64,000 bases of DNA from Minisyncoccota bacterium. Lineage in GTDB: Bacteria; Patescibacteriota; Minisyncoccia; 2-02-FULL-40-12; GWA2-44-9. The notes under the pieces were generated by a model. It made no database searches and had not been told where the DNA came from. It saw only the letters and a list, made by a program, of their open reading frames with translations. Within the stretch, counting starts at the first letter, position 1, and every line of letters begins with the position of its first letter. Positions 3,329 through 44,667 of this stretch are shown in pieces. The DNA lies in assembly GCA_030583765.1 (NCBI GenBank), contig CP129474.1, forward strand, positions 201,709 through 265,708, given 5' to 3'. A program made the position numbers and the translations under genes.

Positions 3329-3341
3329 AGCTTGTAGCAGT

Positions 3342-4721: not shown

Positions 4722-4762
4722 TGTAAAATCAATAAAAATATGGTATGGTATAAGTCGCAAAT

Positions 4763-16128: not shown

Positions 16129-16137
16129 AGCATCCTA

Positions 16138-16166: not shown

Positions 16167-16215
16167 AACGTTTGCTATAGTGCTAAAAGTTCTTCTCACA
16201 ACGAAACGAAAGGAA

Positions 16216-17187: not shown

Positions 17188-17234
17188 AGCACTTCCGTTC
17201 TCGCGTGCCCCCAAGTCTCATTGGGGGCACATTT

Positions 17235-18221
17235 TTATATAAACCCTCGCGACACAATATGATGCATGTGAATAATCCCTACCGGTAGACCGTCTGTGGT
17301 GACGAAGAGGGAGGTAATTTTAAATTTCTCCATATCATAGAGAGCCTCTTTGAGCGTACTTTCCTTACTCGTTGTTTTTGGATTCAAGGTCATGATATCT
17401 TTCGCCTGTAAATCTTTTGAAAACGTTTTTTGAGCAAGGGCGCGGCGCAAATCACCGTCAGTAATAACGCCACGCAGTAGACCATCGCGGGAAATAACAC
17501 CTGTCACGCCAAGCCCCCTTTTCGTGATCTCCTTCACAACCTTTGGAACTGCTTCATCAAGGTACACTAGTGGTAGGCGCGTTTTTCCATGCATGCGAGC
17601 GCTCACACGTGTAAGCTCTAATCCTAATGAGCCGCCAGGATGTGTCCGCGCAAAATCGTTTTTCGTTGTGCACGCATATGTGCTCAGACCAACCGCAAGC
17701 ATGTGACCAATACCGAGCGAAGCAACCGCACTAGCCATCGGAGCTAGGTTGAAAGGAGACCCCTCGGTAGGCGCAGAAAAGCAAAGAGCCACCTGGCTCA
17801 TCTTTACAAGTGGCGACTCTGCGCGCCCAGTGATTGCAATAACCGGCACCTTTATCCGACGCACATACGCCAGCGCATGTATTAATTCCTTTGTTGCTCC
17901 ACTCTGAGAAAGAGCTATCAGAACATCCCCTTTTTGTACCATTCCAAAATCACCATGCATTGCCTCTCCGGGGTGGAGCGGGGTCGCTGGAAATCCCAGA
18001 CTCGTCAAAGATGCAGCAATTTTTTGGCTGATATGCCACGACTTCCCAATGCCGCACACAATAATTTTGCCCCTTCTTTGCCTCAGGAGATCGAGGGCGC
18101 GCGAAAGAAGGCGTGGCGAAATGAGGGAAAGGCTTGCGATTGCTTCTTGCTCAGAAGCAATGAGGTACCTTACAGCTCGCATGATCTCATGTATTCCTTT
18201 CATATATAACGAGAAATGCAC
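17235..18221 (-). CDS. kpsF: Arabinose-5-phosphate isomerase KpsF/GutQ family (SIS domain + tandem CBS)
   Basis: SIS motif KIIVCGIGKSWHISQKIAASL...ALSQSGATKEL. Two C-terminal CBS domains (VYLDEAVPKVVKEI..., IMTLNPKTTSKESTLKEALYDM). Confidence 0.85.
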   Translation of the reverse strand: MHFSLYMKGIHEIMRAVRYLIASEQEAIASLSLISPRLLSRALDLLRQRRGKIIVCGIGKSWHISQKIAASLTSLGFPATPLHPGEAMHGDFGMVQKGDVLIALSQSGATKELIHALAYVRRIKVPVIAITGRAESPLVKMSQVALCFSAPTEGSPFNLAPMASAVASLGIGHMLAVGLSTYACTTKNDFARTHPGGSLGLELTRVSARMHGKTRLPLVYLDEAVPKVVKEITKRGLGVTGVISRDGLLRGVITDGDLRRALAQKTFSKDLQAKDIMTLNPKTTSKESTLKEALYDMEKFKITSLFVTTDGLPVGIIHMHHIVSRGFI

Positions 18222-19051
18222 TCCCAGAGGTCTTGCCGCACATGGCCTCGTTCTATTTCATGCTGGATCTCTGTTCTCGAAATAGTATTGGCTTGCAACG
18301 CCCGCGCAACAAGCTTGAAAAAGTATGCCTCAATCTCCGGGTCAGGATGGCGTTGATATGTCATATGGTATTTCCCTAATACACGCAACAGCGGCTCACG
18401 AGGAATGATTCCAAAAATCTTCGGCAATGGACGCCGTTTAAAATCTACAGGTAAGCCAGTTTTCCATGGTTGCGTAATACGATTCGTCGTGTGGAGCATG
18501 CGAGCACCTGGTGATAACACATCAAGGCTATTCCAATCTCGGGAGAGCTCCAAAACAGACCCCTCGCGCGCCAACGTCATAATTTCATCATAATCACGCT
18601 CGTGACTATAGAGATCATGGAGGAGATCTTTTATGCGCCAGTGCGACAATTGAGCACAGTCGAGCAGCATAACACTAGAATCCCAAGCGCCCTTCTTAGC
18701 ACATGCTGCAATTGCTCGCCCCTGCATATCTAAAGAAAAAAGTTCTCCAATATCGCTCAGGGCAAATATGTCAGGGTCAATCACAATCGCCCGCCCCTGA
18801 AATCCCATGAGCTCTGGAGGCATAAATCGGCTTAACGTAAACGACTGTAAGTCCGCCTCCGATGCGTCAATCAATTGCCCCCACCGCTTAAATGTCTTCC
18901 CGTGTACATGGGCAAAAGGTGATAAAGAGTCAACGTTTAATATTTCAATATGAAATGCACGCGCATCCTTTGCGGTCATTGTTAATGCGAATGCCGCGAG
19001 ACGCGCTCCAAACAGTTGTTTATTATTTGCCTGAATAAAAACTGTGTTCAT
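18200..19051 (-). CDS. Hypothetical protein, possible GT-A-like nucleotide-sugar transferase
   Basis: A DPD (DxD-like) motif in AIVIDPDIFAL. No TM segments and no confident family. Confidence 0.3.
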   Translation of the reverse strand: MNTVFIQANNKQLFGARLAAFALTMTAKDARAFHIEILNVDSLSPFAHVHGKTFKRWGQLIDASEADLQSFTLSRFMPPELMGFQGRAIVIDPDIFALSDIGELFSLDMQGRAIAACAKKGAWDSSVMLLDCAQLSHWRIKDLLHDLYSHERDYDEIMTLAREGSVLELSRDWNSLDVLSPGARMLHTTNRITQPWKTGLPVDFKRRPLPKIFGIIPREPLLRVLGKYHMTYQRHPDPEIEAYFFKLVARALQANTISRTEIQHEIERGHVRQDLWECISRYI

Positions 19052-21237
19052 GAAAGAATGCTCCTATAGAGGCCGCCGTATGCCGCCCGCGACCGTGCAG
19101 AATCGTGCGCGCGAGCATGCTGAACGCTAGCCACACCCATACTACGACGCCTCGCCTCATCCACCAAGAGTAACTGCATGGCATCGGCTAGCGCCTCAAT
19201 ATCGTTCTGAGGCACGAGAATCGCATTTTCTTCAGAGACCGCATCTTCCGCCCCAGTGCCTTGTGTTGCGATAATAGGCAATCCAGATGCGGCAGCTTCT
19301 ACACACACAATACCAAAGCCCTCAACATGGGCCCCACTATTCACTGAAGGGAATACAAATAGCGCCGCTCCTTTATACAGTTTTTTTAAGCGCTCAGAAG
19401 AAGCTAGGTTCTCAAAGAAGACGTGTGCATCTAATCCAAGTTCACGCACCAATGCTCGCACACGATGCATATATGCTACGTCTCTCTGATCGCCAACAAT
19501 AATATAGCGCGCATCCGGAGCAGCGGATCTCGCTTGAGCAAACGCGGGGATACTTATGTGATATCCCTTTCGCTCTTTGAGAGCACCGACACTTAATATG
19601 TACAGTGGATGCTCTTCTTCGTGGCGTTGCGTAAACTCTTCTATATGAACTGCTGGATGAATAACATCGATGACTCCGGAAGAATAGATGCCTCGGATAC
19701 GTCGCTGCATGAATGAGCTAATCGCGATTCGCGCGCGCGCACCCTTAAGCGCAAGACGTGCAATATACATTATTGGCCAATGCTGTAACGGACCGAGAGA
19801 ATACGTCCCTACAAGAGTTATGACATATTTTCGCCGCACCATACGTGCAAGCACCCATGCCACAATGCCTAAGGGGTTTATATCAATCGCATGTATAGAA
19901 ATACTTGCTCGAACTAGGGGCAGCGCCCTCCACATCCCCCAGAGCATCTCCTGACGTCGCCCAAAGAGTGGTAGCGCACCACCCTCTTGAAAGCCGGCCA
20001 TAGTGACAACCCCGACTCTATATTGAGCATCGCGAAGCCCTTGCACAATGTCGGCAGAAAGTCTCCCCCAACCTGATACCAATCGCGCATCCGGAGTCAG
20101 AAATGTGATGATGTGCTGTGAGTAAAAAAGGGCAATATTCTTCGCCCGTTGATCCCACGTCATTTTTTGCACTTCTGTATATGCTCGCTCAATCATTTCA
20201 GAAGCGCCTTCGCCAACTAACGCGCGCTGTAGGCAACGCATTAATGAGTTTGGATCATCGGGGACAAACCATAACGCGCTCTCGTCGCTCAAAACTTCGC
20301 GAAGCGCGGGCACATCTGACGCTACAATGACACGCCGAGAAGCCATATATTCGAAAACTTTCAGTGGTGAGGTAAGCGTCCTCGAGCTTTCATAGCGACC
20401 CGAATTGGGAATCACGAGCACGTCCGCCGCGCATAAGAACATGGGCATCTCGTGGTGTGGCCGATGACCTATTATGTGAATGTTGGGAAAGTTCTGATAC
20501 CGCTCCTGAGCACGCTGCACGTCTTGAGGCATGCCCCCTACAAAGACAAAGTGTGTGTGGGGCATCTGTGTCGCCGTCTCAAGAAGTGTGTCAGCTCCTT
20601 TGTGCGGAAAGAGTTGGCCAGTGTACATGATAAGACGTCCATCAATCGGGAGATCGAGCATAGATCGAGCATCGTGGCGAGATAGAGATGTCTGAAAAAG
20701 AGATACATCAACGCCGTCAGGCGCCGAAAGTATGAGAGCATCAAAAAAGCCATGATCCACAAAGGCTTTACGAATTGACTCATTAATAACTACAAGGCGA
20801 ACACCAGAACGACGAAGGTACCAATAGATAAAAGAGCGACGCTTTGAAAATGTGTGCGCTTCAAACACGATCCGCCGAGGAGAAATGATGGCAACACACA
20901 GTGCAACGAGCTCGTCGCGCGTATATACCAAATCAGCATCAGATCTCCACGCGTGCCACGCAAGAATGAGTCCTGAAAAAACCTGCTTACCCCAAAAGAG
21001 TAGTTTTTCTGGAAAAAATGGGTGTACCCATTCGGGTGCCCATACTCGCCTCACCGAAAAGACACGAGGCACATTATAGTAGGCGAAAATGTCCTCTCCA
21101 ACCCTTGGGTGCCGCGTTGGGATGAGCAGTTCAGTGGAGATGCCGCTCTGCCCAAACGCTTTACACATATGGGCAATCTGTACGCCGTACGCCTTTTCAG
21201 TGGGGAGACGCTGACTACTGATGTAGAGAAGCTTCAT
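19048..21237 (-). CDS. Tandem two-module GT4 glycosyltransferase (fused double GT-B)
   Basis: 729 aa with two GT4-like halves, each carrying an EGFGIV/E-x7-E-like C-terminal motif (first half ...FPSVNSGAHVEGFGIVCVEAAASGLPIIAT). Confidence 0.7.
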   Translation of the reverse strand: MKLLYISSQRLPTEKAYGVQIAHMCKAFGQSGISTELLIPTRHPRVGEDIFAYYNVPRVFSVRRVWAPEWVHPFFPEKLLFWGKQVFSGLILAWHAWRSDADLVYTRDELVALCVAIISPRRIVFEAHTFSKRRSFIYWYLRRSGVRLVVINESIRKAFVDHGFFDALILSAPDGVDVSLFQTSLSRHDARSMLDLPIDGRLIMYTGQLFPHKGADTLLETATQMPHTHFVFVGGMPQDVQRAQERYQNFPNIHIIGHRPHHEMPMFLCAADVLVIPNSGRYESSRTLTSPLKVFEYMASRRVIVASDVPALREVLSDESALWFVPDDPNSLMRCLQRALVGEGASEMIERAYTEVQKMTWDQRAKNIALFYSQHIITFLTPDARLVSGWGRLSADIVQGLRDAQYRVGVVTMAGFQEGGALPLFGRRQEMLWGMWRALPLVRASISIHAIDINPLGIVAWVLARMVRRKYVITLVGTYSLGPLQHWPIMYIARLALKGARARIAISSFMQRRIRGIYSSGVIDVIHPAVHIEEFTQRHEEEHPLYILSVGALKERKGYHISIPAFAQARSAAPDARYIIVGDQRDVAYMHRVRALVRELGLDAHVFFENLASSERLKKLYKGAALFVFPSVNSGAHVEGFGIVCVEAAASGLPIIATQGTGAEDAVSEENAILVPQNDIEALADAMQLLLVDEARRRSMGVASVQHARAHDSARSRAAYGGLYRSILS

Positions 21238-21302: not shown

Positions 21303-22148
21303 ATGATGGTGCCAGATTTCTCCTTTATGATCACATTCCGCTCTCTTGGGCAACTAGGGCGATTCGGCAACCAGCTTTTTCAATATGCAGGGACGCGCCT
21401 CTATGCAGAAACCCACGGCTTCGCGCATGCATTCCCCACGTGGATAGGCGCTCAAGTATTCAATAATATTGCCACCTACACTCTCACAGAACAGCTTCTC
21501 GCAAGCATCCTGCCGACAATCCAACTCGATGATATCCAGTCGTATGGCGTCAAACAAAAGATTGCTTTCGCTCTTGGCCTCTCACCCTCACTGCCATACA
21601 CCGTCTCCCTATCAAGTCTCTACGCTCATCCGCGTGATCACAAAAATCTTTTTGGATATCTCCAAGATCACAAAAGTCTCTCCCTCTTAGCGCAGCACAA
21701 AGAAAAGGTGCGCACGTGGTTCTCGTTTCATGACAAGATAAGCTCCGCGTACACGAAAGCAACGCGCAATCTAAGCCCATGGATCGGCGTCCATGTGCGC
21801 AGAGGAGATCTCGTAAAGCGCGGCGTTACTGTGCCGCTGCACTCATTCTTAGAAAAGCTCGATAGCGTGCGAAACGGTCGGCCGGTTTTCGTTGCATCCG
21901 ACGACCCTAATATGCATTCCGAATTTGCACACTGTGATCCGATCCGCATACGCAACCCATTACCTGAAGTACCGCGAGAAATTTTCGATTTTTGGATGCT
22001 CACGCAGAGCCGTGCGATCATTGGTTGTGGATCAACATTCTCATGGTGGGCAGCATATATAAGTGGAACGCAAGAATACTACGCCCCGCTTCTTACGCAT
22101 CTCTGGCCCGCTGGATACATCCCCGTGCTTGAGCAACAATCAATATGA
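21303..22148 (+). CDS. GT11-family alpha-1,2-fucosyltransferase-like glycosyltransferase
   Basis: GT11 signature motifs GRFGNQLFQYA (motif I), HVRRGDLV and STFSWWAAY. Confidence 0.75.
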   Translation: MMVPDFSFMITFRSLGQLGRFGNQLFQYAGTRLYAETHGFAHAFPTWIGAQVFNNIATYTLTEQLLASILPTIQLDDIQSYGVKQKIAFALGLSPSLPYTVSLSSLYAHPRDHKNLFGYLQDHKSLSLLAQHKEKVRTWFSFHDKISSAYTKATRNLSPWIGVHVRRGDLVKRGVTVPLHSFLEKLDSVRNGRPVFVASDDPNMHSEFAHCDPIRIRNPLPEVPREIFDFWMLTQSRAIIGCGSTFSWWAAYISGTQEYYAPLLTHLWPAGYIPVLEQQSI

Positions 22149-23917
22149 TACGCCGCCTATTTAAACGCCTCTATCGAGCAGTATTCAAAAATCGATTCAT
22201 CACTCCACTGATAGAAGTGAGGCCGTTCAACGTATTCAATTATATCGCCTACGCTCTTGATTATGCGGTATACCGTCGCATGCTTGGAGCTCAACGCGAC
22301 AGCGTTTCACTGTGGCCACAACTTGGAGAAAAAACACCGCGCACATCAATTGATCCACACTATTTTCATCAGGGAGTATGGACTGCTCAAAAAATTGCAC
22401 ACGCGAAGCCGGGGCGACACGTAGATGTCGGGTCGCAGGCGGATCTGATCGGCTTTCTCACCACGCTTACGCATGTCACCTTCGTTGACCTTCGCCCATT
22501 GCCAGTGCGTATTGCTAATCTGGAAAATATAAAGGGAGATATTCTCCATCTTCCATTCTCGAATAATTCGGTTGACTCTCTTTCATGCCTCCATGTAGCT
22601 GAGCACGTGGGGCTTGGACGATATGGCGATCGCCTTGATCCCGATGGGACTATAAAAGCCTGCGCTGAGCTTTCTCGAGTACTTGCGCCAAATGGCAACC
22701 TCTATTTTTCGATACCGATCGGTTCACCGCGAACATTTTTTAATGCTCACCGCATACATGCACCCGAAACAATCCGGAGATATTTTAGTGAACTATCTCT
22801 GGTTGAATTTTCAGCAATCGATGATCGTGGCAACGTCATACGCAACGCAAACATGGAACAACTGCGCCACGCTAAATATGCCTGCGGACTCTTCCATTTT
22901 ACAAAGAAAGATCCGGCCCAAGTGCAAAATATCCTTATTATCAAAATGGGCGCTGCAGGAGATGTCGTCCGCACTACAGCACTACTGCCCGGCTTACAAG
23001 AGAAATATCGGGGAGCAACGATCGATTGGCTTACCCAGCCACGTATGGAACCCCTCCTGCGCGACAACCCGCACATCGATCGCATTCTTATAGCGCCGAC
23101 CGATGCGTGGCGCGAACGTGAATACCAACTGGTTATTAATCTCGATGAAGAAGAGGAGGCATGCCGCATTGCGTCGGCAGCAAGAACGCAACGTATTTTT
23201 GGCGCGTATATAGATGGTGACAAAATATCATACACTAATGATGCCGCGCCGTGGTTCGATATGGGCCTGATATCGAGATATGGAAAAACAAGGGCGGATG
23301 AATTGAAAAAACTAAACCGGAAAACATACCAGGAGCTTTGTTATGAAATGCTCGATATCCCCTATAGAAAGCAAGAGCCGCATTTCCCTCTCTCGGGCGT
23401 CGACACAGCATTTGCACAGCAATTTGCAGAAAGATACGGCATAAAAAAGAATACGCGCGTCATTGGCATAAATCCTGGCTCTAGTAAGCGATGGGTCGAC
23501 AAGCGCCTTCAGGTGCACGAGGCGCGGGCCCTTATAGCTGGACTCCGCGGGAAATATCCAGATGCGAAAATCATACTTTTTGGAGGACCAGAAGAGCGTG
23601 AATACATTAGCGCAATCATTGAAGCGACGCGAGATCTCAGTATTATCGACGCGGGAATTGAAAACTCCCTTGGGCAATTTGCGGGCCTTATTAATCTTTG
23701 CTCCGACGTCATCACTAGTGATAGCATGGCCCTCCACATTTCCACTGCGCTAAAGAAAAAAGTGGTCGCCTTCTTTGGCCCGACGTCACCATGGGAAATA
23801 GAGCTCTATAATCTCGGAACAAAAATACTCCCCGTACGTGGATGTCTAAGTTGCTATAATAAAAACTGTAACACACCTCCCGAATACGACATTGACGCTC
23901 TTATAAAAGAAGCCTAG
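22145..23917 (+). CDS. Bifunctional fusion: N-terminal SAM-dependent methyltransferase domain + C-terminal GT9 heptosyltransferase-like domain
   Basis: N-terminus HVDVGSQADLIGFL...DSLSCLHVAEHVG (Methyltransf_11/DUF268-like). C-terminus ILIIKMGAAGDVVRTTALLPGL...IDWLTQP (GT9 ADP-heptose transferase hallmark). Confidence 0.65.
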   Translation: MIRRLFKRLYRAVFKNRFITPLIEVRPFNVFNYIAYALDYAVYRRMLGAQRDSVSLWPQLGEKTPRTSIDPHYFHQGVWTAQKIAHAKPGRHVDVGSQADLIGFLTTLTHVTFVDLRPLPVRIANLENIKGDILHLPFSNNSVDSLSCLHVAEHVGLGRYGDRLDPDGTIKACAELSRVLAPNGNLYFSIPIGSPRTFFNAHRIHAPETIRRYFSELSLVEFSAIDDRGNVIRNANMEQLRHAKYACGLFHFTKKDPAQVQNILIIKMGAAGDVVRTTALLPGLQEKYRGATIDWLTQPRMEPLLRDNPHIDRILIAPTDAWREREYQLVINLDEEEEACRIASAARTQRIFGAYIDGDKISYTNDAAPWFDMGLISRYGKTRADELKKLNRKTYQELCYEMLDIPYRKQEPHFPLSGVDTAFAQQFAERYGIKKNTRVIGINPGSSKRWVDKRLQVHEARALIAGLRGKYPDAKIILFGGPEEREYISAIIEATRDLSIIDAGIENSLGQFAGLINLCSDVITSDSMALHISTALKKKVVAFFGPTSPWEIELYNLGTKILPVRGCLSCYNKNCNTPPEYDIDALIKEA

Positions 23918-23939: not shown

Positions 23940-24866
23940 ATGAATAAAGTACTTGTACTCGGTGGAACTGGATTCCTTGGCACTCAAGTTATGCGATTGG
24001 CTCGTGAGCAGGGGTATGATCCCGTATCTCTCTCTCGAGGCGAAGGGACGGATATTCGTAATTTCGACCAGCTCTCCGCACGACTAGCGGAAATCAAGCC
24101 GGACGTTATCCTTAACTGCGCTGGACACGTAGGGAATGTGCACTACGTAACAAAAATGGCCGGAGACGTTATTCATGATAACGTACAGATGGCCATTAAT
24201 CTTTACCGAGCAGTAAAAGATGTTGTGCCACATGCGAAGATTGTGAACCCCTTTGGCAACTGCTCCTACCCTGGAAGCGCTGACGTGCAGCGAGAAACGC
24301 AATGGCAAGATGGGCCCGTCCATGACTCCGTTCTTGCTTTCGGCTTTGTAAAGCGTGTCCAGCATACACTTGCCGAGTCATATCGAAAACAATACGGCAT
24401 TAAGACTGTAAACTGGCTCGTGTGCAATCCATATGGACCAGAAAACCATATCAATCTTGATAAAATGCACGCCCTGAACGGCATCATTATTCGCATGATG
24501 CGCGCTCAGCAAAATGGAGATAAGACTTTTGAGATTTGGGGAACGGGAACACCTATACGTGAATGGCTCTACATTACCGATGCAGCACGCATAATGGTTC
24601 ACTCCATTGAACACGTAGCCGAGCAAACGCACCCGGTCAACGTCGCCAAAAAACAGGGTTACTCGATTAAAGAAATTGCCGAACTCGTCTCGAAAATACT
24701 TGAATATCCAGTTGAATTCGTATACAAAACCGACATGCCTGACGGAGCTCCCGTAAAAATCATGGATGATGCACTGTTCCGATCAAAATACCCAGATTTT
24801 ACATTCACGAAATTAGAAGATGGCATTCGAGAGACAATAGCGCACTTTAAGCCAATGCTTGTATAA
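23940..24866 (+). CDS. fcl: GDP-L-fucose synthase (GDP-4-keto-6-deoxymannose 3,5-epimerase/4-reductase)
   Basis: VLVLGGTGFLG Rossmann motif. NPFGNCSYPG...YRKQYGIKTVNWLVCNPYGPENH and WGTGTPIREWLYITDAA align with Fcl motifs. Confidence 0.7.
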   Translation: MNKVLVLGGTGFLGTQVMRLAREQGYDPVSLSRGEGTDIRNFDQLSARLAEIKPDVILNCAGHVGNVHYVTKMAGDVIHDNVQMAINLYRAVKDVVPHAKIVNPFGNCSYPGSADVQRETQWQDGPVHDSVLAFGFVKRVQHTLAESYRKQYGIKTVNWLVCNPYGPENHINLDKMHALNGIIIRMMRAQQNGDKTFEIWGTGTPIREWLYITDAARIMVHSIEHVAEQTHPVNVAKKQGYSIKEIAELVSKILEYPVEFVYKTDMPDGAPVKIMDDALFRSKYPDFTFTKLEDGIRETIAHFKPMLV

Positions 24867-24872
24867 ATATTT

Positions 24873-25832
24873 ATGGATAATACACATATGAAAGTTCTTG
24901 TTACAGGTGGCGCAGGATATGTCGGCACAACGCTGGTGCCACAACTTCTAGAAAAAGGCTACGAGGTGACTGTTCTCGATCGCCTCATGTGGGGCGGTGC
25001 CGTTTTGATCCCATTCTTTAAACATCCCAATTTCCACTTCATTAAAGGAGATGTAAGGAATGAAGAGCTCATGAAAAAAGTGGTTGCTGATAAGGACGTT
25101 ATTATTCATTTAGCAGCAATAGTTGGATTTCCAGCATGTGACGCAAACCCTATCATGGCAGATACAACAAATGTTGAATCCTGCCGCATTCTCAGTAAAT
25201 TAGTGAGCAAAGGCCAGCATGTTATTTTTGCCTCCTCTGGATCTAACTACGGGCGCGTTGTCGGCCAAGTTTGCACAGAAGAAACACCAGTTAACCCTAT
25301 TAGCCGCTACAGCAGAAATAAGCTAGAAGGGGAGAAAATATTAATGGAGGGCACCACGTGCACCGCCCTACGACCTGGGACGGCATTTGGAGTTTCTCCT
25401 CGATTGCGCCTCGATCTCCTTCCTCACGAACTTACACTCCAAGCACTCAAAACAAAAAGCATTGTACTCTATGAAGCATGGGCGATTCGTCCCTTCATTC
25501 ATGTACACGACTTTGGGCGCGCATTCGTGTTCGCGGTTGAGCATAAAGATGCTATGAAAAATCAAATCTATAACCTCGGGGCGGACCCGCTCAACTACAC
25601 CAAGCGACAGATCGCGGATCTTGTTGCAACGCACACTGGCGCGACCGTTGAAGAATCAAATGCGTGGCAGGATCCAGATCAGCGCCACTATCAGGTCTCT
25701 TATAAGAAGCTGCATGACGTTGGGTATCGACACACGATTAGCATGGAAGACGGCATCAAAGAACTACTTCGCGTGCTCCCCGTAGCAACACTCTTCAACC
25801 CGTACTCAAACCAAAACGAAATGCTCGGTTAG
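24873..25832 (+). CDS. NAD-dependent epimerase/dehydratase family protein (GalE-like SDR)
   Basis: VLVTGGAGYVGTTLV, SSGSNYG and YSRNK (S/Y/K catalytic triad). It is not Gmd-like (the GxTGQDGSYLAE motif is absent). Confidence 0.65.
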   Translation: MDNTHMKVLVTGGAGYVGTTLVPQLLEKGYEVTVLDRLMWGGAVLIPFFKHPNFHFIKGDVRNEELMKKVVADKDVIIHLAAIVGFPACDANPIMADTTNVESCRILSKLVSKGQHVIFASSGSNYGRVVGQVCTEETPVNPISRYSRNKLEGEKILMEGTTCTALRPGTAFGVSPRLRLDLLPHELTLQALKTKSIVLYEAWAIRPFIHVHDFGRAFVFAVEHKDAMKNQIYNLGADPLNYTKRQIADLVATHTGATVEESNAWQDPDQRHYQVSYKKLHDVGYRHTISMEDGIKELLRVLPVATLFNPYSNQNEMLG

Positions 25833-26980
25833 GGCAGAAGAGATACGAAAAACTGAAAAAACCGCCGACGAACCTCTGTATACGCATAGTGGGCTTTAAT
25901 AAATGCCCGGCCCGCTACTCCGAAACGCTTTCGCTGAGCAGCATCTTGCGCCATTCTCACCATAGCATCCATAAGCGCATCACTATCCTGAGGCGGCACA
26001 AGCAATCCTGTCTCGCCATCACGAACTACTTCGCTCATAGAGCCGGAATGCGTTGCAATAACCGGCAGCTCCATAAGCGAAGCCTCGGCCATAGAATAAC
26101 CGAATTGTTCCTCCCACCCACCATACGGGATGCTCGGATAGACAAATACATCGGATCTATTCAGAATATCGCGCACGCTCTCGCGCGAAGTCCATGGAAT
26201 GCGCTCCACATATGCCTCTAGCCCACGTTCCACGATCGCGTTTTGTATGACAGATTCCTCTTCACCAGAACCAGCAAGAATAAATCTGACGTTTGTATGT
26301 CTACGGAGAACCTCAGATAATGCATCGAGTAGGTAGAGAAGCCCCTTGCGAACACCGATCGCCCCAATGAAGGTAAATGTACAGACATCGGCATGCCCCT
26401 CGTCCCGTGATGGCGCAAAGAAGGCATCGTCTACGCCGCTCATTGGAATGATGGCGGTGTGTTTAAAAAATGGAGCATGAATCCGCTCACTTTTCTCGTT
26501 GCCGCATACTATTCCGTGTGCGAGTAGTCCATGCACCCTAAGTAGGAGTTGCTTGATCGCAAGATGCACGCCCTTTAACTTTTGTTCATACGGAACATTC
26601 TCCCACGAAAAAAGCACGAGCCTTTTGCGCATGAGACGCGACCAGAGAGCAACATACAGCGTCGATAATAACGTGGGTTCGCCGCACCAATAGACAAGAT
26701 CGACTTTTCTCCGATGTCGGAACAGGAACAACGGAAAAAACGGCATCCATCCTTTCAGAAGGCCTCCAATAACTGGGTAGTGCGAGTGGTGAAAAAAGGT
26801 TGATGTTATATGCACGCCCTTCCACTGCGGAGGGGTATAGATGAATGCCCCTTGTTTGATGGGCCAGCGGGCGGGCAAGAGAAAGAGCATTCCATCATCC
26901 GCGGGATGCTCATTATCTAAGAAGAAAGTTTTTAGGTAGTTCTCCCGCACATAAGGAAAACCCGCAATGAGAATCTTCAT
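25829..26980 (-). CDS. GT4 glycosyltransferase
   Basis: C-terminal GT-B motif EEQFGYSMAEASLMELPVIATHSGSMSEVVRDGETGLL. Last gene of the minus-strand GT operon. Confidence 0.75.
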   Translation of the reverse strand: MKILIAGFPYVRENYLKTFFLDNEHPADDGMLFLLPARWPIKQGAFIYTPPQWKGVHITSTFFHHSHYPVIGGLLKGWMPFFPLFLFRHRRKVDLVYWCGEPTLLSTLYVALWSRLMRKRLVLFSWENVPYEQKLKGVHLAIKQLLLRVHGLLAHGIVCGNEKSERIHAPFFKHTAIIPMSGVDDAFFAPSRDEGHADVCTFTFIGAIGVRKGLLYLLDALSEVLRRHTNVRFILAGSGEEESVIQNAIVERGLEAYVERIPWTSRESVRDILNRSDVFVYPSIPYGGWEEQFGYSMAEASLMELPVIATHSGSMSEVVRDGETGLLVPPQDSDALMDAMVRMAQDAAQRKRFGVAGRAFIKAHYAYTEVRRRFFQFFVSLLP

Positions 26981-27642
26981 GGTGATATTTTGCGCGCACG
27001 GACAATAAATTGGAATGCGAAAAAGCTCGGGAAAAAACGCGCTACGAAAGCAAGCTTGCCGGGGAAAAGGATGTGTCTCTCCTTTTCTATGGTAAATCCA
27101 ACATCACGGAGCGCACGCTGAAGCGAAGCGTATGTAAACCATCGAATGTGGCCAAAATCAAACATTCCTTGATCTTGGTATTCGAAGAAGCCGAACATAA
27201 ATCGAATACGGTTTGTCCAAGTAAGGAAGTTAGGGGTGGTAAGAATAATAAACCCATCGTTTCGAAGAGCGCTATGGCACTGACGAAGGAACGGCTTTGG
27301 GTCAAAAAGATGTTCGATCACCTCTGACGCTATGATGCCGTCGAACGGCTGGCCTATCACTTCTCTGGGCCACTCTTTTTCGATATCGCACACCCATGCG
27401 CCATCAAGCACGTTGCGCGCCGCCTCAACCGCACGAGGAGAAATGTCGACACCGAAGACCGCATGCCCACGCTCTTTGGCGTGTGCGCCAAGACGACCTT
27501 GAGCGCACCCGATGTCCAGAATACGAGAGGGGTGCGATGGCAGGAGAGATAGTATGCGATCGCGCCGCGTATGGCTCATACCGTATTGAGGGGCTTTGTG
27601 AAGATAATAATCAGTAGGCATAAGAGGAGAGGATGTCGTCAA
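26977..27642 (-). CDS. Class I SAM-dependent methyltransferase
   Basis: Motif I ILDIGCAQGRLGAHAKERGHAVFGVDISPRAVEAARN. The start may be an internal Met (27621 or 27579) given the 32-bp overlap with the upstream gene. Confidence 0.7.
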   Translation of the reverse strand: MTTSSPLMPTDYYLHKAPQYGMSHTRRDRILSLLPSHPSRILDIGCAQGRLGAHAKERGHAVFGVDISPRAVEAARNVLDGAWVCDIEKEWPREVIGQPFDGIIASEVIEHLFDPKPFLRQCHSALRNDGFIILTTPNFLTWTNRIRFMFGFFEYQDQGMFDFGHIRWFTYASLQRALRDVGFTIEKERHILFPGKLAFVARFFPSFFAFQFIVRARKISP

Positions 27643-28660
27643 TCTCTATGGCAAGTTGGCGCGTAGATGCCTGACGTACATACTGCAAACGCGCACCTTC
27701 TCCGAGCATTGTACGCAGTCCATGGTTATCCGCAAGCGTTTGGATGGCATGAGCTAGCGCGCGGGCATCGCCAGCGGGGACATAATAAATCGCTTTATCA
27801 TCAAAGAGCTCTCTCATCGCAGGAGTATCGGCACTAATGATCGCCCTACCAGATGCCGCAGCCTCGAAAATTTTATTTGGTATTACAAGATCTGTCTTCT
27901 GACTTGTACCAAAAATACCCAAGCATATGTCAGAATTCGCTATGTATTCTGCTAAATTCTTATATGAAACGGAATCAATGAAAGTTATTGAGGGCACTTC
28001 ATGAGCCATTTCACGAACTCGCACATACGTCTGCCCTTTTCCTATGAGGATCGCGCGTACATGCGTCTGGGGGCGCAGCATACGCATGGCCTCAACGATA
28101 ACTTCCACTCCGTGAAGCGGAATAAAAGTACCGTGAAAATGTACCACGATCTCCGAATGGGGAGCGCTCGACGCGCGTGGAAAGAATACTGATTCGTCAG
28201 TACCAACAAATATACGGTGAAAAAGTTCCCGTGGCAGCTTAAACTCGCGCATGAAAAAATCGATATGCGCCTGGGTGTCCAAAAGTACTTTATGTGCGAG
28301 CTTGCACGACCACGTATCAAGAAATCTATACCACCATGCGCGAATACTTTTTGTCCCTGCTTTTTTGCGATCTAAAATATATCCACCGTAGTGGGATGTA
28401 AACGCATCGAAAATAATAGATCCCCTAAACAGTAGGCGGGCTAAGAACATAACTTTTTGGCCAGGGAAAAGCACAAGCATTATAGAGAACGCCTCCTTGC
28501 GGCGCATATATTGCACGCATAAATCGATGTAGCCGCGAAGCCCCTCGTGCTCTGTGCGCATATGCGTAATGCTATACCCCGCCATTAAGCACGCCTGCGC
28601 AAGCACCCTATTGCGCGCATAGAGAGGATCATATGTTCCAAAGAAGAGAATGTTCTTCAT
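27611..28660 (-). CDS. GT4 glycosyltransferase
   Basis: GT-B architecture with a C-terminal E-x7-E-like region (IPNKIFEAAASGRAIISADTPAMRELF). 4-bp overlap with the upstream gene. Confidence 0.7.
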   Translation of the reverse strand: MKNILFFGTYDPLYARNRVLAQACLMAGYSITHMRTEHEGLRGYIDLCVQYMRRKEAFSIMLVLFPGQKVMFLARLLFRGSIIFDAFTSHYGGYILDRKKAGTKSIRAWWYRFLDTWSCKLAHKVLLDTQAHIDFFMREFKLPRELFHRIFVGTDESVFFPRASSAPHSEIVVHFHGTFIPLHGVEVIVEAMRMLRPQTHVRAILIGKGQTYVRVREMAHEVPSITFIDSVSYKNLAEYIANSDICLGIFGTSQKTDLVIPNKIFEAAASGRAIISADTPAMRELFDDKAIYYVPAGDARALAHAIQTLADNHGLRTMLGEGARLQYVRQASTRQLAIEIDDILSSYAY

Positions 28661-29688
28661 GGTGTGCGGAATATGATAGAAAGGGCCTGTTGTATACGCA
28701 CACGCATGGTGTGATCGCGCAACACTCGGTTGCGCCCACGAGCGGCGATGGATTGACGCTCTACAGGATGAGCGAGCCAGTACATAACCTTAGGCTGCAG
28801 ATCGGATATGTGTGTAAATGTAGCAACTTCCTGCTCAATAGCAAAAACGTCTTTAAGACCAGCGCGCTCATCGGTAAGCTCAAACCCCCCTGCGGCAGGT
28901 ATCTCAAATGTCTTCACATTCACCCCGTGCGTTTCAGGGAGCAAATTCATATTGATACAAATCGCTGATCGCCGATATATCTCTGCGGCTTCCTCCGGAG
29001 TCACCGAGCCGCGATAAAACCTAGCAAGTGGCGTTGCGCGCCACCCTGACCACCCGAAAAGTCCAAGACGTATGTGCGGCAACGTAGTAAGAGTCATGAG
29101 AGCCTCCTGACGCTCGGGATATGGGGCGCCAATAAAACACACGTCGAATTCGGGCGCCGCGGGCATGGATCCATGGAATCTTTCAGGCACAAGCGCAAAG
29201 GGCAATACAAAGAAGCGATCTCGCCGTTCTTCCGGCATATACGTCACCGCGCTTGCATCAAATGAAAAAAATGTATCATACAATCCGGCAACCGAACGCA
29301 TCCATGATGCATAGGGTTCGTGGGCGACATTTTCCGGGCACCAGTGAGCTACGCGTACTCCGCGATCTTGTGCATAGCGTATAGTGTCTGGCTTTACTAA
29401 CAAACTCTTGTGCACAAAGAGAGCATCCGGCCGCCAAACGTCTATATGCTGCCGTATCATTGCGGCAAGGCGCTGGTTACTTATGCGGCGCAGCATGTGT
29501 ATGCGCCGAGTAGCGCGCCACACCCACCCACTCTGCAATAAGCTCCATGCAGGGAAAAGCCAGTTGAAGCGGTCATCGACCCAGCGCACATCGCAATCAT
29601 TCTCACGGAAGCCCTGCATCATCTGTTCCGTGAATGAGCCTCGTGGCGCGATAAGAAGAATGCGTTTTTTCGTCATAAGCCGACACAA
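28657..29688 (-). CDS. Putative glycosyltransferase, CgeB/DUF3880-like GT-B
   Basis: The C-terminal region (GLFGWSGW...INMNLLPETHGVNVKTFEIPAAGGFELTDE) resembles the CgeB-family glycosyltransferase C-terminus. Confidence 0.45.
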   Translation of the reverse strand: MCRLMTKKRILLIAPRGSFTEQMMQGFRENDCDVRWVDDRFNWLFPAWSLLQSGWVWRATRRIHMLRRISNQRLAAMIRQHIDVWRPDALFVHKSLLVKPDTIRYAQDRGVRVAHWCPENVAHEPYASWMRSVAGLYDTFFSFDASAVTYMPEERRDRFFVLPFALVPERFHGSMPAAPEFDVCFIGAPYPERQEALMTLTTLPHIRLGLFGWSGWRATPLARFYRGSVTPEEAAEIYRRSAICINMNLLPETHGVNVKTFEIPAAGGFELTDERAGLKDVFAIEQEVATFTHISDLQPKVMYWLAHPVERQSIAARGRNRVLRDHTMRVRIQQALSIIFRTP

Positions 29689-30716
29689 GTAAGAATGCGG
29701 GCGGTAACACCAAGTACCGAATGCCGCTCTCGCACACGACGCATCAAATAATCACGCATTTCTTCTCGCTCTGATGCACTGAGCACGAGTATCTGTTTGA
29801 TACGCTCCGCTACAGCGTGCTGTGGCAGAGATTCATCAAGTAAAAGAAGGTGTGCGTATGGCCCAAAATCATCGTGAAATATGTGGTTGGTTGTAATCGG
29901 AAGAACGCCATACGCCATCGCTTCCAGAACGGCCTTATCAAGCCCTCCCCGTGGCGCTAAATTCACCGCGATATCAGCCCATGCATAGTGTGCTGCGATC
30001 TCATTATGTGGCACCGAGCCTGCCCACTCGATATGAGCGGCGTGTTGTGCACGAGCATGAATGCTTCTAGCGTATTGCTCATCGCTCGGCATCATTGGAG
30101 AACCGACAACACGCAAGGTATGCGAAATACCTTCACGCATAAGCTGCAAGGACGCCTCAATAATTCGGTTAATGCGTTTTAAGGGCGTAATGCGAGCTAC
30201 GCTGATGATGTGAAGCCCCTCGTGCTCGTCTCGCGCCCGAGGGACATCGGGGATAGAAATACCGTGCCCAACGCTCACAATCTTTGAAGATGTGATGCGG
30301 AGACTGCGCGCATCGGCAGTAATTAAAGCATCGCTCAAGAAAAGAGCGAGGCGGAGACGAGTAGTAACCGACCGGTGTAAGTACCAAAGGAGTAGTTTTG
30401 TTTTCGAAAAAAGTGTCCACGGCCATGCGGTGATAGCGAAAATGGGCGACATGTGAGCCAGCACAGCGCGTGAACCGGGGATCAGCCGCGCAGTGAGTAT
30501 GAGATAGCGAAAAATCTGAACCAATTTAGACACACCCCGCTCTTTTCCAAGTGAATAGACGGATACATTGGATGGTAGTGAATAAGCGCCCTTTGCAAGC
30601 GTTATCACATCAACATGATCAACGCGATGCGCCAAAGCGCGGATCCACGCCACAAAAAATCCAAGCACATCACTACGCTCATCAACGCTCTGGGTTATGA
30701 TGACGATGCGCTTCAT
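29673..30716 (-). CDS. GT4 glycosyltransferase
   Basis: GT-B protein. C-terminus ...NLAPRGGLDKAVLEAMAYGVLPITTN is typical of GT1/GT4. Confidence 0.7.
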   Translation of the reverse strand: MKRIVIITQSVDERSDVLGFFVAWIRALAHRVDHVDVITLAKGAYSLPSNVSVYSLGKERGVSKLVQIFRYLILTARLIPGSRAVLAHMSPIFAITAWPWTLFSKTKLLLWYLHRSVTTRLRLALFLSDALITADARSLRITSSKIVSVGHGISIPDVPRARDEHEGLHIISVARITPLKRINRIIEASLQLMREGISHTLRVVGSPMMPSDEQYARSIHARAQHAAHIEWAGSVPHNEIAAHYAWADIAVNLAPRGGLDKAVLEAMAYGVLPITTNHIFHDDFGPYAHLLLLDESLPQHAVAERIKQILVLSASEREEMRDYLMRRVRERHSVLGVTARILTCVGL

Positions 30717-31825
30717 AGCTGAAAAATATTCTGGATGGCACGGGCAGAGGCGCTTATAACCTGTTCACGAGCATACCTTTCACGAATGTCGTGAGATCCT
30801 TTCTCTGCCCGAATCTGCCACGAAGGATCTTCGAGCACATCTCGCATCCCCTGCACAATATCGTCTAGCGACCAATGCACGATACGTACTGCTGCGCCCT
30901 CTTGTCCAAGGTCTTGGATAACCCCCACGGGAGTTGCGATCACTGGAATACCGCACGCGAGCGCCTCTACGGCAACGCGCGGACCCCCTTCACTGTCTGA
31001 CAACATCACCAAAGCCCGAGCTTCTCTTATTGCTTGTAATACCTCGGCCGCTGAATCGACCCACCCACTCCACGTTATACGGCTGCTCACTCCCTGTTGG
31101 CGTGCGTATTGCTGCGCCCAGTCCAAGAGAGATCCTGTACCAATAACACGCATCGTTGCGTGCTCAAGACGCGCAAGCGCCTCTATGGCACGCTGAATGC
31201 CTTTATTACGCTCTATACGCCCTACAAAAATAAAGTCGTGTGTCACGGGCATTTGAGGGGGCTCCTGCATCGTGGGGAGAAAGAGAGCGGGAATGAGATG
31301 GAGCTTCTCGCGAGCTACACCCCACGCTAAAAGACGCTTCCCCGTTTCACTCATATTCATCACACGAACGCCCGAAGCAATGCGCGCTTCGACGGGCACT
31401 ATAATCCGCGAGAGATACCGGTAGACCACCTCACGGAATGAGCCGGCCCGAGGGACTCCTGGAATATGAAAAATCTCGAGAAGCGCGGGAATACCCAAAC
31501 GTCTTGCAAGGAAAAGCCCCCCTATTCCATTGTAAAATGGTGGGTATTCATGGATGGTCATACCTCCGTATGTGCGCTCGCGCCCAAGGCGCATCCCCGT
31601 GCGAAAGATATGTAGCCACTGCATCAGGAGAGGAAGGCGGGATGCATGCACATATACATTAGGGAATGGATTCTGTCGTACCATACACCCTCGCGCTACT
31701 CGAGGCACAATAATATCAATACGGTCCCAGTGCTTATGGAACTCTGTGAGCATGTGAAAAAATGCTCCGTCCATACCCGCAGCAAGCATACGATCACCGC
31801 TCACCATGAGAAGTGTTTTATTCAT
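30713..31825 (-). CDS. GT4 glycosyltransferase
   Basis: MLSDSEGGPRVAVEALACGIPVIATPVG motif. Start chosen at MNKTLL (31825), which gives an ATGA 4-bp overlap with the upstream gene. Confidence 0.7.
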   Translation of the reverse strand: MNKTLLMVSGDRMLAAGMDGAFFHMLTEFHKHWDRIDIIVPRVARGCMVRQNPFPNVYVHASRLPLLMQWLHIFRTGMRLGRERTYGGMTIHEYPPFYNGIGGLFLARRLGIPALLEIFHIPGVPRAGSFREVVYRYLSRIIVPVEARIASGVRVMNMSETGKRLLAWGVAREKLHLIPALFLPTMQEPPQMPVTHDFIFVGRIERNKGIQRAIEALARLEHATMRVIGTGSLLDWAQQYARQQGVSSRITWSGWVDSAAEVLQAIREARALVMLSDSEGGPRVAVEALACGIPVIATPVGVIQDLGQEGAAVRIVHWSLDDIVQGMRDVLEDPSWQIRAEKGSHDIRERYAREQVISASARAIQNIFQL

Positions 31826-32979
31826 AGGTGTAGCGCCTTTATCCATGCCTCACGCATACGCGCCTCATCATACAAGCGAGCCGTTGCCTTTCCCGCCTCA
31901 CTCATGTGTGCGCGAAGCTCTGGCATATCCCATAGCGCACGAATGGCTTCGCGGAGATTGAATTCATCATTGTACTTTACCATCAAACCATTCTCTCCCT
32001 GCGAGATAATTTCGCGATTGCCGCCGGCCGTGGTCGTAATCACAGGAACGCCCGCAGCCATCGCCTCAATGATCTGATGCGAGAATCCTTCATATCCTGT
32101 GTTAAGCACGAAGAGATCTGCCGCAGCGAGATACGTCGGGAGCTCTTCATGGGACTTCGCTCCGACAATAAACACCTTCTTCTCCAAACCAAGATTTCTA
32201 GCCATGGTACGAAGTACATCGCGCTCAGGACCATCACCCACGATCACTAATCTGAAAAACTGATTAAGCTCGAGAAGTTGCGGCATGATTTTGATGAGCA
32301 TGCGAAATCCCTTCCAAGGAACTAACCGGCCGACCGAAACAATAAGTGTCCCCGGGATACCGATTCGCGTACGTGCATCTTGCTGCGAGATCTCTGATGG
32401 TGAAAATGTTACAGCGTTGGGCACAATCACGATACGCTCGGAATCGTACCCCCATCCCTGCACAATAGATTGTAGGTATTGAGATGGCACAACCACCTGA
32501 GCACTACGACGCACAACCCACCGCTGTATGCGGCGAAGCATACCCGCCCAACCACCTATCTGCACACCCTGAAAATCATCAATGAGAAGATGCGTGTGGC
32601 GCTTTTGTATTGCATATTCCCATGCATAGTCTCCAGCAATACGCACCGTTACTGGAATGCGCCGCAACATGCCCGCTATATGTGCGGCAATTCCAGGCGT
32701 TTTTCCCGAAAGCGCCAAGAGGTGGGTCGCTCCTGCACTTACCCACCACACCCGAAGCGCGTAGAGGATATGGCGCACCATCCAAGGCCACCAGCGCGAT
32801 ACACGATACACCTCAATACCCTGCTCCTGCTGACCCCGCCCAAATGCCACCACGCGCACGCGTACCCCACGCTCATGAAACGCACGCGCTACCGCATGCG
32901 CAACGGTTGCTGGGCCACCTATATCAGGGGGATAAATGCCAGTTGCGATAACAAGAAGTGGTTTCTGTTCGTTACTCAT
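31822..32979 (-). CDS. GT4 glycosyltransferase
   Basis: N-terminus LLVIATGIYPPDIGGPATVAH. C-terminus YEGFSHQIIEAMAAGVPVITTTAGGNREII. Start at MSNEQ (32979). Confidence 0.75.
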   Translation of the reverse strand: MSNEQKPLLVIATGIYPPDIGGPATVAHAVARAFHERGVRVRVVAFGRGQQEQGIEVYRVSRWWPWMVRHILYALRVWWVSAGATHLLALSGKTPGIAAHIAGMLRRIPVTVRIAGDYAWEYAIQKRHTHLLIDDFQGVQIGGWAGMLRRIQRWVVRRSAQVVVPSQYLQSIVQGWGYDSERIVIVPNAVTFSPSEISQQDARTRIGIPGTLIVSVGRLVPWKGFRMLIKIMPQLLELNQFFRLVIVGDGPERDVLRTMARNLGLEKKVFIVGAKSHEELPTYLAAADLFVLNTGYEGFSHQIIEAMAAGVPVITTTAGGNREIISQGENGLMVKYNDEFNLREAIRALWDMPELRAHMSEAGKATARLYDEARMREAWIKALHL

Positions 32980-34795: not shown

Positions 34796-34842
34796 GGGTT
34801 GGTACTATCATAGCGCGCATAGCAACGTAAAACAACGCCCTT

Positions 34843-39216: not shown

Positions 39217-39219
39217 AGG

Positions 39220-39786: not shown

Positions 39787-39795
39787 AGCAAGCTC

Positions 39796-41580: not shown

Positions 41581-41601
41581 GCAACAAGCGTCAGCGCAAT
41601 C

Positions 41602-44639: not shown

Positions 44640-44667
44640 ATCGCCATTCTATGCAAAGACTAGGACC

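Follow-up and report, generated by a model that had tools for sequence, protein, structure and literature searches.

Two described systems come closest to the locus presented here, in which a DUF268-type methyltransferase and a family 9 glycosyltransferase (GT9) form a single protein of 590 amino acids (aa), encoded at positions 22145–23917 of a 64-kb window (the whole stretch of DNA analysed: 64,000 nucleotides of contig CP129474.1, positions 201,709 to 265,708). The first is the heptose module Cj1423–Cj1431 of Campylobacter jejuni NCTC 11168 (HS:2), in which Cj1426 codes for a heptose 6-O-methyltransferase, Cj1427 for a GDP-heptose C4-dehydrogenase (PMC10680097), Cj1428 for an Fcl-like C4-reductase, Cj1430 for an epimerase, and Cj1431 for a heptosyltransferase, the capsule product being 3,6-di-O-methyl-D-glycero-L-gluco-heptose. 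The second is WsaE of Geobacillus stearothermophilus NRS 2004/3a, an O-methyltransferase/rhamnosyltransferase of the S-layer glycan with an N-terminal methyltransferase fused to glycosyltransferase (GT) domains. By analogy, the locus appears functionally closest to the Campylobacter module, and its architecture resembles that of WsaE. The fusion is read here as a bifunctional cytoplasmic enzyme of a monoderm Paceibacterota which would transfer a remodelled heptose and O-methylate the glycan, as part of a pathway making a lipid-linked surface glycan, a reading to which a probability of roughly 0.55 is given.

Like the HS:2 module, the fusion locus brings together a heptose-type transferase, a methyltransferase, and an Fcl-like short-chain dehydrogenase/reductase (SDR), as well as an SDR resembling PDB entry 6VO6, taken here to be Cj1427. 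The Campylobacter product, a methylated and C3/C4/C5-remodelled heptose on a surface polysaccharide, may be likened to the predicted product of the fusion locus. The two nevertheless differ in several respects. The transferase and the methyltransferase are here one polypeptide, of the GT9 and DUF268 types, and are likened to Cj1431 and Cj1426 by predicted activity; no separate C3/C5 epimerase gene is seen, and the Fcl-like enzyme would need to carry out both steps. Moreover, the sister loci of the fusion carry genes of the ADP route (an HldE-type kinase and an adenylyltransferase), whereas Campylobacter uses HddA/HddC of the GDP route, and the host is a monoderm member of the candidate phyla radiation (CPR), unlike the diderm pathogen. 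WsaE shares with the fusion an N-terminal O-methyltransferase followed by GT domain(s); its target is a lipid-linked glycan at the surface of a monoderm, and the type of sugar it attaches is also the one it methylates. A similar action of the fusion on a surface glycan is suggested by the island in which it lies, and the likeness to WsaE is one of architecture alone. In contrast to the fusion, WsaE has two rhamnosyltransferase domains and no GT9, uses dTDP-rhamnose, and its cap is tied to Wzm/Wzt export. The domain combination is new, but all its parts come from known families, bifunctional methyltransferase–GT enzymes and methylated capsular heptoses are already known, and the function rests on context, so that the novelty is incremental rather than categorical.

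The fusion protein and its two halves

The protein and its parts are located as follows.

22145..23917 (stop codon included), + strand: fusion open reading frame (ORF) coding for a DUF268 methyltransferase joined to a GT9 glycosyltransferase, 590 aa (ORF call, Pfam, NCBIfam)
22145..22906, + strand: N-terminal domain, aa 1–254, made up of a helical, basic extension (aa 1–~87) and the core of a DUF268-type class I methyltransferase dependent on S-adenosylmethionine (SAM) (Pfam, alignment, model)
22907..22927, + strand: short linker KDPAQVQ, aa 255–261, ~7 residues (match boundaries, ortholog alignment)
22928..23914, + strand: C-terminal GT9 domain, predicted to be of the GT-B type, aa 262–590 (Pfam, NCBIfam, PDB alignments)

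The ORF starts with ATG and contains zero internal stops, and the identical protein is found on 3 independent Logan assemblies (SRR26372210, SRR26372209, and SRR24881069). Two orthologs from two other metagenomes, P0002 (65% identity) and P0003 (61%), are also single ORFs with an aligned linker of 6–7 residues, and keep both halves (66–70% identity in the methyltransferase, 59–60% in GT9). Because the same ORF recurs in three assemblies and single-ORF orthologs exist at 61–65% identity, the fusion is real rather than a product of faulty sequencing or assembly. The claim of a one-protein fusion made by the reading of the letters and translations alone (hereafter the sequence-only reading) is thus upheld, and the missed stop or frameshift that could have undone it was looked for and is not there. 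The phmmer match boundaries show an end-to-start junction: stand-alone DUF268 matches finish at their own C-terminus at query position ~254–255, and stand-alone GT9 relatives begin with their own residue 2 at query position 262.

In the N-terminal half, Pfam recognises DUF268 (PF03269, aa 142–210, E 5.6e-10, 39.8 bits against a cutoff of 25) and Methyltransf_11 (PF08241, aa 108–188, E 3.8e-7, 31.1 bits against a cutoff of 21.2). An AlphaFold model of aa 1–263, built on 60 DUF268 homologs, is confident (predicted local distance difference test, pLDDT, 90.7; predicted template modelling score, pTM, 0.87) and yields 904 PDB matches in Foldseek at E<=1e-3; all 50 of the 50 listed are SAM methyltransferases or proteins of the methyltransferase fold (probability 1.00), the sugar-modifying NodS and AtmM among them. 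The Methyltransf_11/DUF268-like fold proposed for this half from the letters is therefore confirmed by both Pfam and the model, and the possibility that the domain lacks a methyltransferase fold falls away. In the 60-sequence alignment D94, S97, S147, E153, G156, G158, R159, Y160, G161, D162, G184, and P191 are family-invariant, and throughout the stretch H92-V-D94-V-G96-S97 and at D115 conservation reaches 90% or more. According to the model, the former stretch would be the SAM-binding motif I and D115 the acidic residue after strand 2. The DUF268 signature S147-C-L-H-V-A-E153-H-x-G-L-G-R-Y-G-D162 is almost invariant in the same homologs. The H-x-x-E-H pattern within it may serve to bind a metal or a substrate.

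DUF268 has been described as an uncharacterised methyltransferase family common to bacteria and nematodes, which in Caenorhabditis elegans sits in "glycoclusters", and no characterised member was found in the literature searched. Its commonest fusion partner elsewhere is an FkbM methyltransferase, others being GT2, GT11, and a sulfotransferase. This range of partners, GT9 included, suggests glycan substrates and hence a glycan-modifying module; sugar O-methyltransferase activity is predicted. It is worth mentioning that the commonest fused or adjacent partner of DUF268 is an FkbM-family methyltransferase (between the methyltransferase and GT9 genes in loci L022, L038, and L047, and in proteins P0032–P0062), which suggests that methylation steps are paired in many polysaccharide clusters of bacteria.

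The C-terminal half is matched by Pfam Glyco_transf_9 (PF01075, aa 389–576, E 9.4e-18, 64.9 bits against a cutoff of 22). The NCBIfam models of heptosyltransferases I, II, and III align across aa 262–575 (TIGR02195 over model positions 1–314 of 339), and the half is therefore a complete GT9 and not a fragment. Among solved structures it is collinear with 3tov, a structural-genomics GT9 (aa 263–555, E 4e-13), and matches WaaF 1psw (aa 473–549, E 9e-8) and WaaC 2gt1 (aa 262–556, E 3e-4). The GT9 motif pointed out in the sequence-only reading, ILIIKMGAAGDVVRTTALLPGL, is indeed present at aa 263–284, and its D273 aligns with the catalytic Asp13 of Escherichia coli HepI; in the WaaC alignment D273, K448, and D526 correspond by position to HepI D13, K192, and D261, which are catalytic or substrate residues of that enzyme. 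Conservation was counted in the 53 GT9 rows of a 68-sequence MAFFT alignment, the methyltransferase-only rows having been misplaced onto GT9 columns (15% identity) and left unused. D273, D526, W450, and an R or K at position 449 (R449 in the fusion) are each found in 53/53 clade members; K448 is variable, with 8/53.

None of the equivalog cutoffs for WaaC, WaaF, or WaaQ is reached by this half (TIGR02195, 65.9 against 134.6; TIGR02193, 53.6 against 185.3; TIGR02201, 52.5 against 170.2; PRK10916, 47 against 569). Because these scores lie so far below the cutoffs, the GT9 domain is, as judged from sequence, not an enzyme of the lipopolysaccharide (LPS) core. Its nearest relatives come from Patescibacteria and DPANN archaea, and the clade also occurs fused to GT2 or GT4. 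A cysteine cluster, C567-x2-C570-x4-C575 (aa 567–575, window 23843–23869), is present in the 3 fusions and in 22/53 clade members, with D/S otherwise; C567 and C570 are equally frequent in the clade and may be a subclade-specific metal or disulfide site.

Each half is common alone, but the combination is extremely rare. A search of 5.8 billion clusters by word index gave only three full-length relatives, P0001 (99%) and the orthologs P0002 and P0003. In an exhaustive phmmer search of 1.84 billion representatives at 50% identity a single representative covers both halves, the other matches among the best 150 being confined to aa ~30–255 or to aa ~262–580; the rarity of GT9–methyltransferase fusions, asserted in the sequence-only reading, thus stands as one 50%-identity cluster. 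It is only the fusion that is unique, not the pairing of the two families, because in several Gram-negative phyla separate genes for DUF268 and GT9 proteins adjoin one another. In at least 10 genomes of Pseudomonadota, Geobacteraceae, and Verrucomicrobia (loci L003, L012, L017, L022, L026, L038, L041, L047, L067, and L080; hosts Gallionella of the Gallionellaceae, Ca. Ferrigenium, Nitrosomonadales, Geobacteraceae, and Verrucomicrobia) a genome scan showed a GT9 gene immediately preceded by one for a DUF268 methyltransferase, sometimes with an FkbM methyltransferase gene in between. The GT9 of these loci is genuine (PF01075, E ~1e-35). The gene sets share with the fusion the two families, the order of methyltransferase then GT9, and a setting in polysaccharide clusters with GT11, GT4, GT2, and an MsbA-like exporter, of which the GT11 genes and the exporter recur. 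They differ from it in being separate genes, in a GT9 of another subfamily, in their diderm hosts, and in lacking the 6VO6-like/Fcl-like SDR pair. Compared half by half, their methyltransferases are 50–56% identical to that of the fusion and their GT9 proteins 22–25%. The genome-scan matches extending over residues 23–576 had been considered as split orthologs of the Rosetta-stone kind and were ruled out by this low identity of the downstream GT9 (tblastn, and blastp by half). The DUF268–GT9 association would then involve more than one GT9 subfamily, whether it emerged anew or was retained, which would support a functional link at the level of the families.

The operon and its relatives

The fusion belongs to an operon, the other members of which are the following.

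21303..22148, + strand: GT11-like glycosyltransferase, 281 aa (Pfam PF01531, E 9e-8)
23940..24866, + strand: SDR1, 308 aa, GDP-L-fucose-synthase-like, predicted 3,5-epimerase/4-reductase (NCBIfam, PDB)
24873..25832, + strand: SDR2, 319 aa, full-length homolog of PDB 6VO6/6VO8 (PDB sequence match)

The stop codon of the GT11-like gene overlaps the start codon of the fusion (ATGA), which implies that the two are translationally coupled. The order GT11-like gene, fusion, SDR1, SDR2 is syntenic in all three fusion lineages, and the same two SDRs lie directly downstream of GT9 in all the fusion loci and in L086–L088, at 64–88% identity. SDR1 is 82% and 74% identical to its counterparts in the other fusion lineages and 68% to that beside a stand-alone GT9 in L088; for SDR2 the respective values are 88%, 83%, and 64%. 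SDR1 matches the NCBIfam model GDPFucSynFcl with E 4e-42, below the cutoff, and its PDB matches are 4b8w (2e-33), 1bsv (6e-23), and MlghC 7anh (4e-19), MlghC and DdahC, the Campylobacter heptose C4-reductases, being the weaker ones. Among solved structures SDR2 has one homolog that stands out, 6VO6/6VO8 (E 3.8e-77, 43% identity over 311 aa), which we take to be C. jejuni Cj1427, an NDP-heptose (nucleoside diphosphate heptose) C4-dehydrogenase.

The nearest stand-alone GT9 relatives (48–50% identity; loci L086/87 and L088) belong to the same module without the methyltransferase. There, a divergently transcribed PfkB kinase gene is followed by GT9, the SDR1 ortholog (68%), and the SDR2 ortholog (64%); the flanks are syntenic to the left arm of the window, and no GT11-like gene is present. 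Heptose-activation genes are found near the fusion itself in the sister loci. In L002 a heptose-7-phosphate kinase of the HldE domain I type (rfaE_dom_I, 341.5 bits against a cutoff of 345) adjoins the operon, and in L001, 7 kb upstream, an rfaE_dom_II-like adenylyltransferase (93 against 181.5) is fused to GmhB (164.5 against 178; TIGR01656, 131 above its cutoff of 84).

Some further genes of these loci deserve mention. In L001 positions 1652–3300, between cupin and Methyltransf_23 genes, are taken up by the adenylyltransferase/GmhB fusion and a kinase-like gene of the AAA_33 type, and both are missing from the syntenic window segment 10955–12035. An AAA_33 gene and an HAD gene flank GT9 in L086. 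Beside the GT9/SDR module of L088 (9434–13526) lie genes for NeuB, a Hydrolase_3 phosphatase, and a CTP_transf_3 cytidylyltransferase, which together point to a pathway of the nonulosonic-acid or Kdo type (Kdo being 3-deoxy-D-manno-oct-2-ulosonic acid), and a Glyphos_transf gene.

The host can be placed by the XseA protein of the window (62305–63438), which is 100% identical to a Candidatus Paceibacterota protein, its next relatives being from Patescibacteria. CPR bacteria were described as monoderm with an S-layer in a 2018 paper, which also remarked on "LPS-type" proteins or genes in CPR metagenome-assembled genomes. The sequence-only reading had singled out a GT9 in an organism apparently lacking LPS as notable in itself. 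The part concerning the host stands, it being a Paceibacterota of a group described as monoderm, but the surprise is lessened by the "LPS-type" genes noted in CPR as early as 2018. A literature search for GT9 or heptosyltransferases in CPR/Patescibacteria gave nothing specific. XseA is only 47–50% identical between the fusion-bearing lineages, compared with 61–65% for the fusion and 74–88% for the SDRs. This greater likeness of the operon (fusion, and SDRs at 23940–25832) suggests lateral movement among Paceibacterota, or an unusually strong constraint.

Proposed function and its alternatives

In the proposed pathway, the phosphoglycosyl transferase of the island would start the glycan, which the GT4, GT2, and GT11-like enzymes would extend. 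SDR2, as a 6VO6-like C4-dehydrogenase, would oxidise a nucleotide-heptose at C4, and the Fcl-like SDR1 would epimerise and reduce it to an L-configured heptose, the remodelling taking place at C3/C4/C5. The GT9 domain would then transfer the nucleotide-activated, remodelled heptose to the lipid-linked glycan at the cytoplasmic face, and the DUF268 domain, tethered by ~7 residues, would O-methylate the same glycan, either at the heptose just added or at the residue added by the GT11-like enzyme. We infer the donor sugar, the acceptor, the methylation site, and the coupling of the two reactions; the use of ADP-heptose as the donor of the GT9 domain is predicted from context. Channelled transfer and methylation of the same sugar, which the sequence-only reading took the fusion to imply, is inference only.

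The heptose-like sugar of that reading is borne out in part. It is favoured by the 6VO6-like and Fcl-like SDRs that invariably come after this GT9 and by the heptose kinase and adenylyltransferase/GmhB genes of the sister loci, but activation genes are missing from the island of this genome, and the proposed look for gmhA, hldE, and gmhB came out negative there (~69 kb inspected). The L002 kinase and the L001 adenylyltransferase/GmhB have no tblastn match in the 64-kb window; the sugar isomerase (SIS) gene of the island is of the KpsF/GutQ type and not GmhA (gmhA model 32.8 against 209); and the 5 kb to the left of the window contain the beginning of the island as well as SecA and HPF, with no heptose kinase, nucleotidyltransferase, GmhB, or GmhA. 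In a search with the kinase, none of the best 120 matches lies on a contig of 615,149 bp, the one that carries the identical XseA. These absences weigh against the transfer of a heptose by the fusion, and several other points do so as well. Four relatives of the GT9 clade (L089–L093; Woesearchaeota, Nanoarchaeota, and others) have no heptose genes within 6–8 kb, and GT9 is paired there with GT2 and GT-C enzymes; because of these loci the heptose link holds for the Paceibacterota sub-clade, but not demonstrably for the whole GT9 clade. There is a nucleotide mismatch, in that Cj1427 uses GDP-alpha-heptose, while GT9 and the HldE-type sister genes point to ADP-beta-heptose. SDR1 is nearer to genuine GDP-fucose synthases than to MlghC/DdahC and a GT11-like gene is adjacent, so that the SDRs could serve a fucose-like pathway. 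The link to Cj1427 runs through the presumed identity of 6VO6 with that enzyme. In other phyla DUF268 is accompanied by GT9 proteins only distantly related to that of the fusion, with the 22–25% identity given above. Finally, the full-length AlphaFold model, made from a 3-sequence alignment, is of too low confidence (pLDDT 50) to place the two active sites relative to each other.

A wider form of the proposal is put forward only tentatively, as rather unlikely in its entirety: that monoderm, LPS-free CPR bacteria make ADP-heptose by the beta-route (HldE-type kinase, adenylyltransferase, and GmhB) and convert it, through a Cj1427-like C4-dehydrogenase and one Fcl-like 3,5-epimerase/4-reductase, to an L-configured heptose, which the fusion transfers and O-methylates on a cell-surface glycan. 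To our knowledge, no pathway of ADP-linked heptose remodelling has been described.

Among the alternatives, the one that survives best, though we consider it doubtful, is that GT9 is not a heptosyltransferase and moves a hexose, a 6-deoxyhexose, or another sugar, with the SDRs making a fucose-like 6-deoxy- or L-hexose for the GT11-like enzyme and/or GT9, and the methyltransferase methylating it. This would fit the ~69 kb of this genome devoid of heptose-activation genes, the true GDP-L-fucose synthases as the best PDB matches of SDR1, the translationally coupled GT11-like gene, and the heptosyltransferase equivalog models, all far below their cutoffs. GT9 relatives without heptose genes nearby (L089–L093), a DUF268+GT11 fusion elsewhere (P0107), and the GT11 genes recurring near DUF268/GT9 pairs agree with it too. 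It is countered by L086–L088, where the SDR pair follows GT9 with no GT11-like gene and with a PfkB of the heptose-7-phosphate-kinase type adjacent, as well as by the sister loci, the L002 kinase being essentially at the rfaE_dom_I cutoff and L001 having the adenylyltransferase and GmhB. Moreover, a fucose-type route would require a 4,6-dehydratase, and Pfam and NCBIfam annotation identified none beside the SDRs. The only strong solved homolog of SDR2, 6VO6, is presumably a heptose-specific dehydrogenase.

Less probable still is a chain-terminating cap, in which GT9 adds the last sugar and the methyltransferase methylates the non-reducing end, stops elongation, and marks the chain for export, as with WsaE and E. 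coli O8/O9. WsaE indeed has the same layout of an N-terminal methyltransferase and GT, and its methyl cap ends the growth of the S-layer glycan; DUF268 is often fused or adjacent to domains of terminal modification (FkbM methyltransferase, sulfotransferase), and the island has an ABC exporter, a kind of gene that turns up repeatedly beside DUF268/GT9 pairs. That exporter, however, is of the fused MsbA/PglK type rather than a Wzm/Wzt pair carrying a module that binds the cap, the Wzx-like flippase and the Wzy_C-like protein of the island suggest block assembly, and there is no sign of a repeating-unit polymer in the data. Capping would in any case refine the transfer and O-methylation of a remodelled heptose by the fusion and is not exclusive of it.

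The two remaining explanations are effectively excluded. That the fusion is an ordinary inner-core heptosyltransferase of a diderm (WaaC/WaaF/WaaQ-like) with an extra domain is very improbable, even if its best NCBIfam matches are the heptosyltransferase I/II/III models over aa 262–575 and its automatic name at the Joint Genome Institute (JGI) is "ADP-heptose:LPS heptosyltransferase". With WaaC (HepI), WaaF (HepII), and 3TOV it shares the CAZy/Pfam family, a collinear full-length alignment, and the conserved equivalents of D13 and D261. It differs from WaaC and WaaF in missing every equivalog cutoff by far and in a monoderm host, Candidatus Paceibacterota, offering no lipid A–Kdo acceptor; no waaA, lpx, or kds genes are found among the annotated genes of the 64-kb window, and its GT9 clade, unlike the LPS enzymes, resides in glycan islands of Patescibacteria and DPANN, the fusion adding a methyltransferase domain. 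Least credible of all is an artefactual merger, through an overlooked stop or frameshift, of two adjacent genes such as those which lie side by side, sometimes overlapping, in other phyla, since the three assemblies and the two orthologs with an aligned linker speak against it.

The significance of the fusion is as follows. A testable hypothesis of function is provided for DUF268, which, if true, would be the first functional assignment of this family, as a glycan O-methyltransferase. A GT9 "heptosyltransferase" clade is placed outside LPS, in glycan islands of monoderm CPR bacteria and DPANN archaea, where it is associated with homologs of the enzymes that remodel the capsular heptose of Campylobacter. 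Should the heptose be confirmed, CPR episymbionts would show methylated heptoses at their surface, which bears on attachment to host cells and on phage recognition, and also on the role of ADP-heptose as a signal to innate immunity outside the Gram-negative bacteria. A natural transferase–methyltransferase fusion is, moreover, a convenient system for coupled glycan elongation and modification.

The glycan island and the rest of the window

The fusion operon is situated within a ~45-kb lipid-linked glycan island, the other identified parts of which are listed below.

1..6553: left end of the island (Bac_transf, Wzy_C-like, Wzx-like, ABC exporter)
ending at 1058, + strand: initiating phosphoglycosyl transferase (Bac_transf), truncated at the left edge of the window (domain annotation)
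1055–3328, - strand: Wzy_C/O-antigen-ligase-like protein with TPR (domain annotation)
3342–4781, - strand: Wzx-like flippase (domain annotation)
4763–6553, + strand: MsbA/PglK-type ABC exporter (domain annotation)
17235..18221, - strand: KpsF/GutQ-family sugar-phosphate isomerase with SIS and CBS domains (TIGR00393, 228 bits, above the cutoff of 203.7; conserved in L001)
19048..21237, - strand: tandem double GT4 glycosyltransferase, 729 aa, divergent from the GT11-like/fusion operon (727 aa in L001)
25829..44639: right part of the island, with 8 GT4-type/GT1-like genes, one GT2, Methyltransf_23, PMT_2/TPR GT-C-like genes, and several domain-less proteins

The full-length Bac_transf gene is found in L094, with SecA and HPF to its left. 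GT4-type genes (Glycos_transf_1 family) number nine in the island, including the 729-aa tandem double GT4, and further genes code for a GT8-like enzyme, four other methyltransferases, an AsnB-like protein, a 2-oxoglutarate (2OG) oxygenase, and a radical-SAM/SPASM protein.

The last of these lies in a pair of long ORFs overlapping in antisense, 16090–17187 (+) and 16183–17214 (-), of which the + ORF has the Radical_SAM and SPASM domains. A radical-SAM/SPASM gene stands at the syntenic place in L086, and the public Logan call takes the domain-less minus ORF (L083, 4039–4956), which is probably the wrong strand.

Between the PMT_2/TPR proteins, at 35996–48405, there is a run of large proteins without a Pfam match (488, 589, and 1219 aa), adjoined by a GSDH/beta-propeller protein and a Lamin-tail-domain protein (49049–50017). 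The AT skew of the + strand is 0.19–0.24 across 36–44 kb and 0.30 at 2–4 kb. The segment 54001–56000 has a G+C content of 0.61, compared with ~0.50 elsewhere, and contains a 531-aa ORF without a Pfam match and long overlapping ORFs on both strands. No tRNA or tmRNA genes and no Rfam families above the gathering threshold are present in the whole 64-kb window. At 60726–62045 (+) a 439-aa protein combines a DnaJ (J) domain with Peptidase_S41, a tail-specific protease, in an unusual pairing, and in L091 the gene immediately before the stand-alone GT9 likewise codes for a DnaJ-domain protein.

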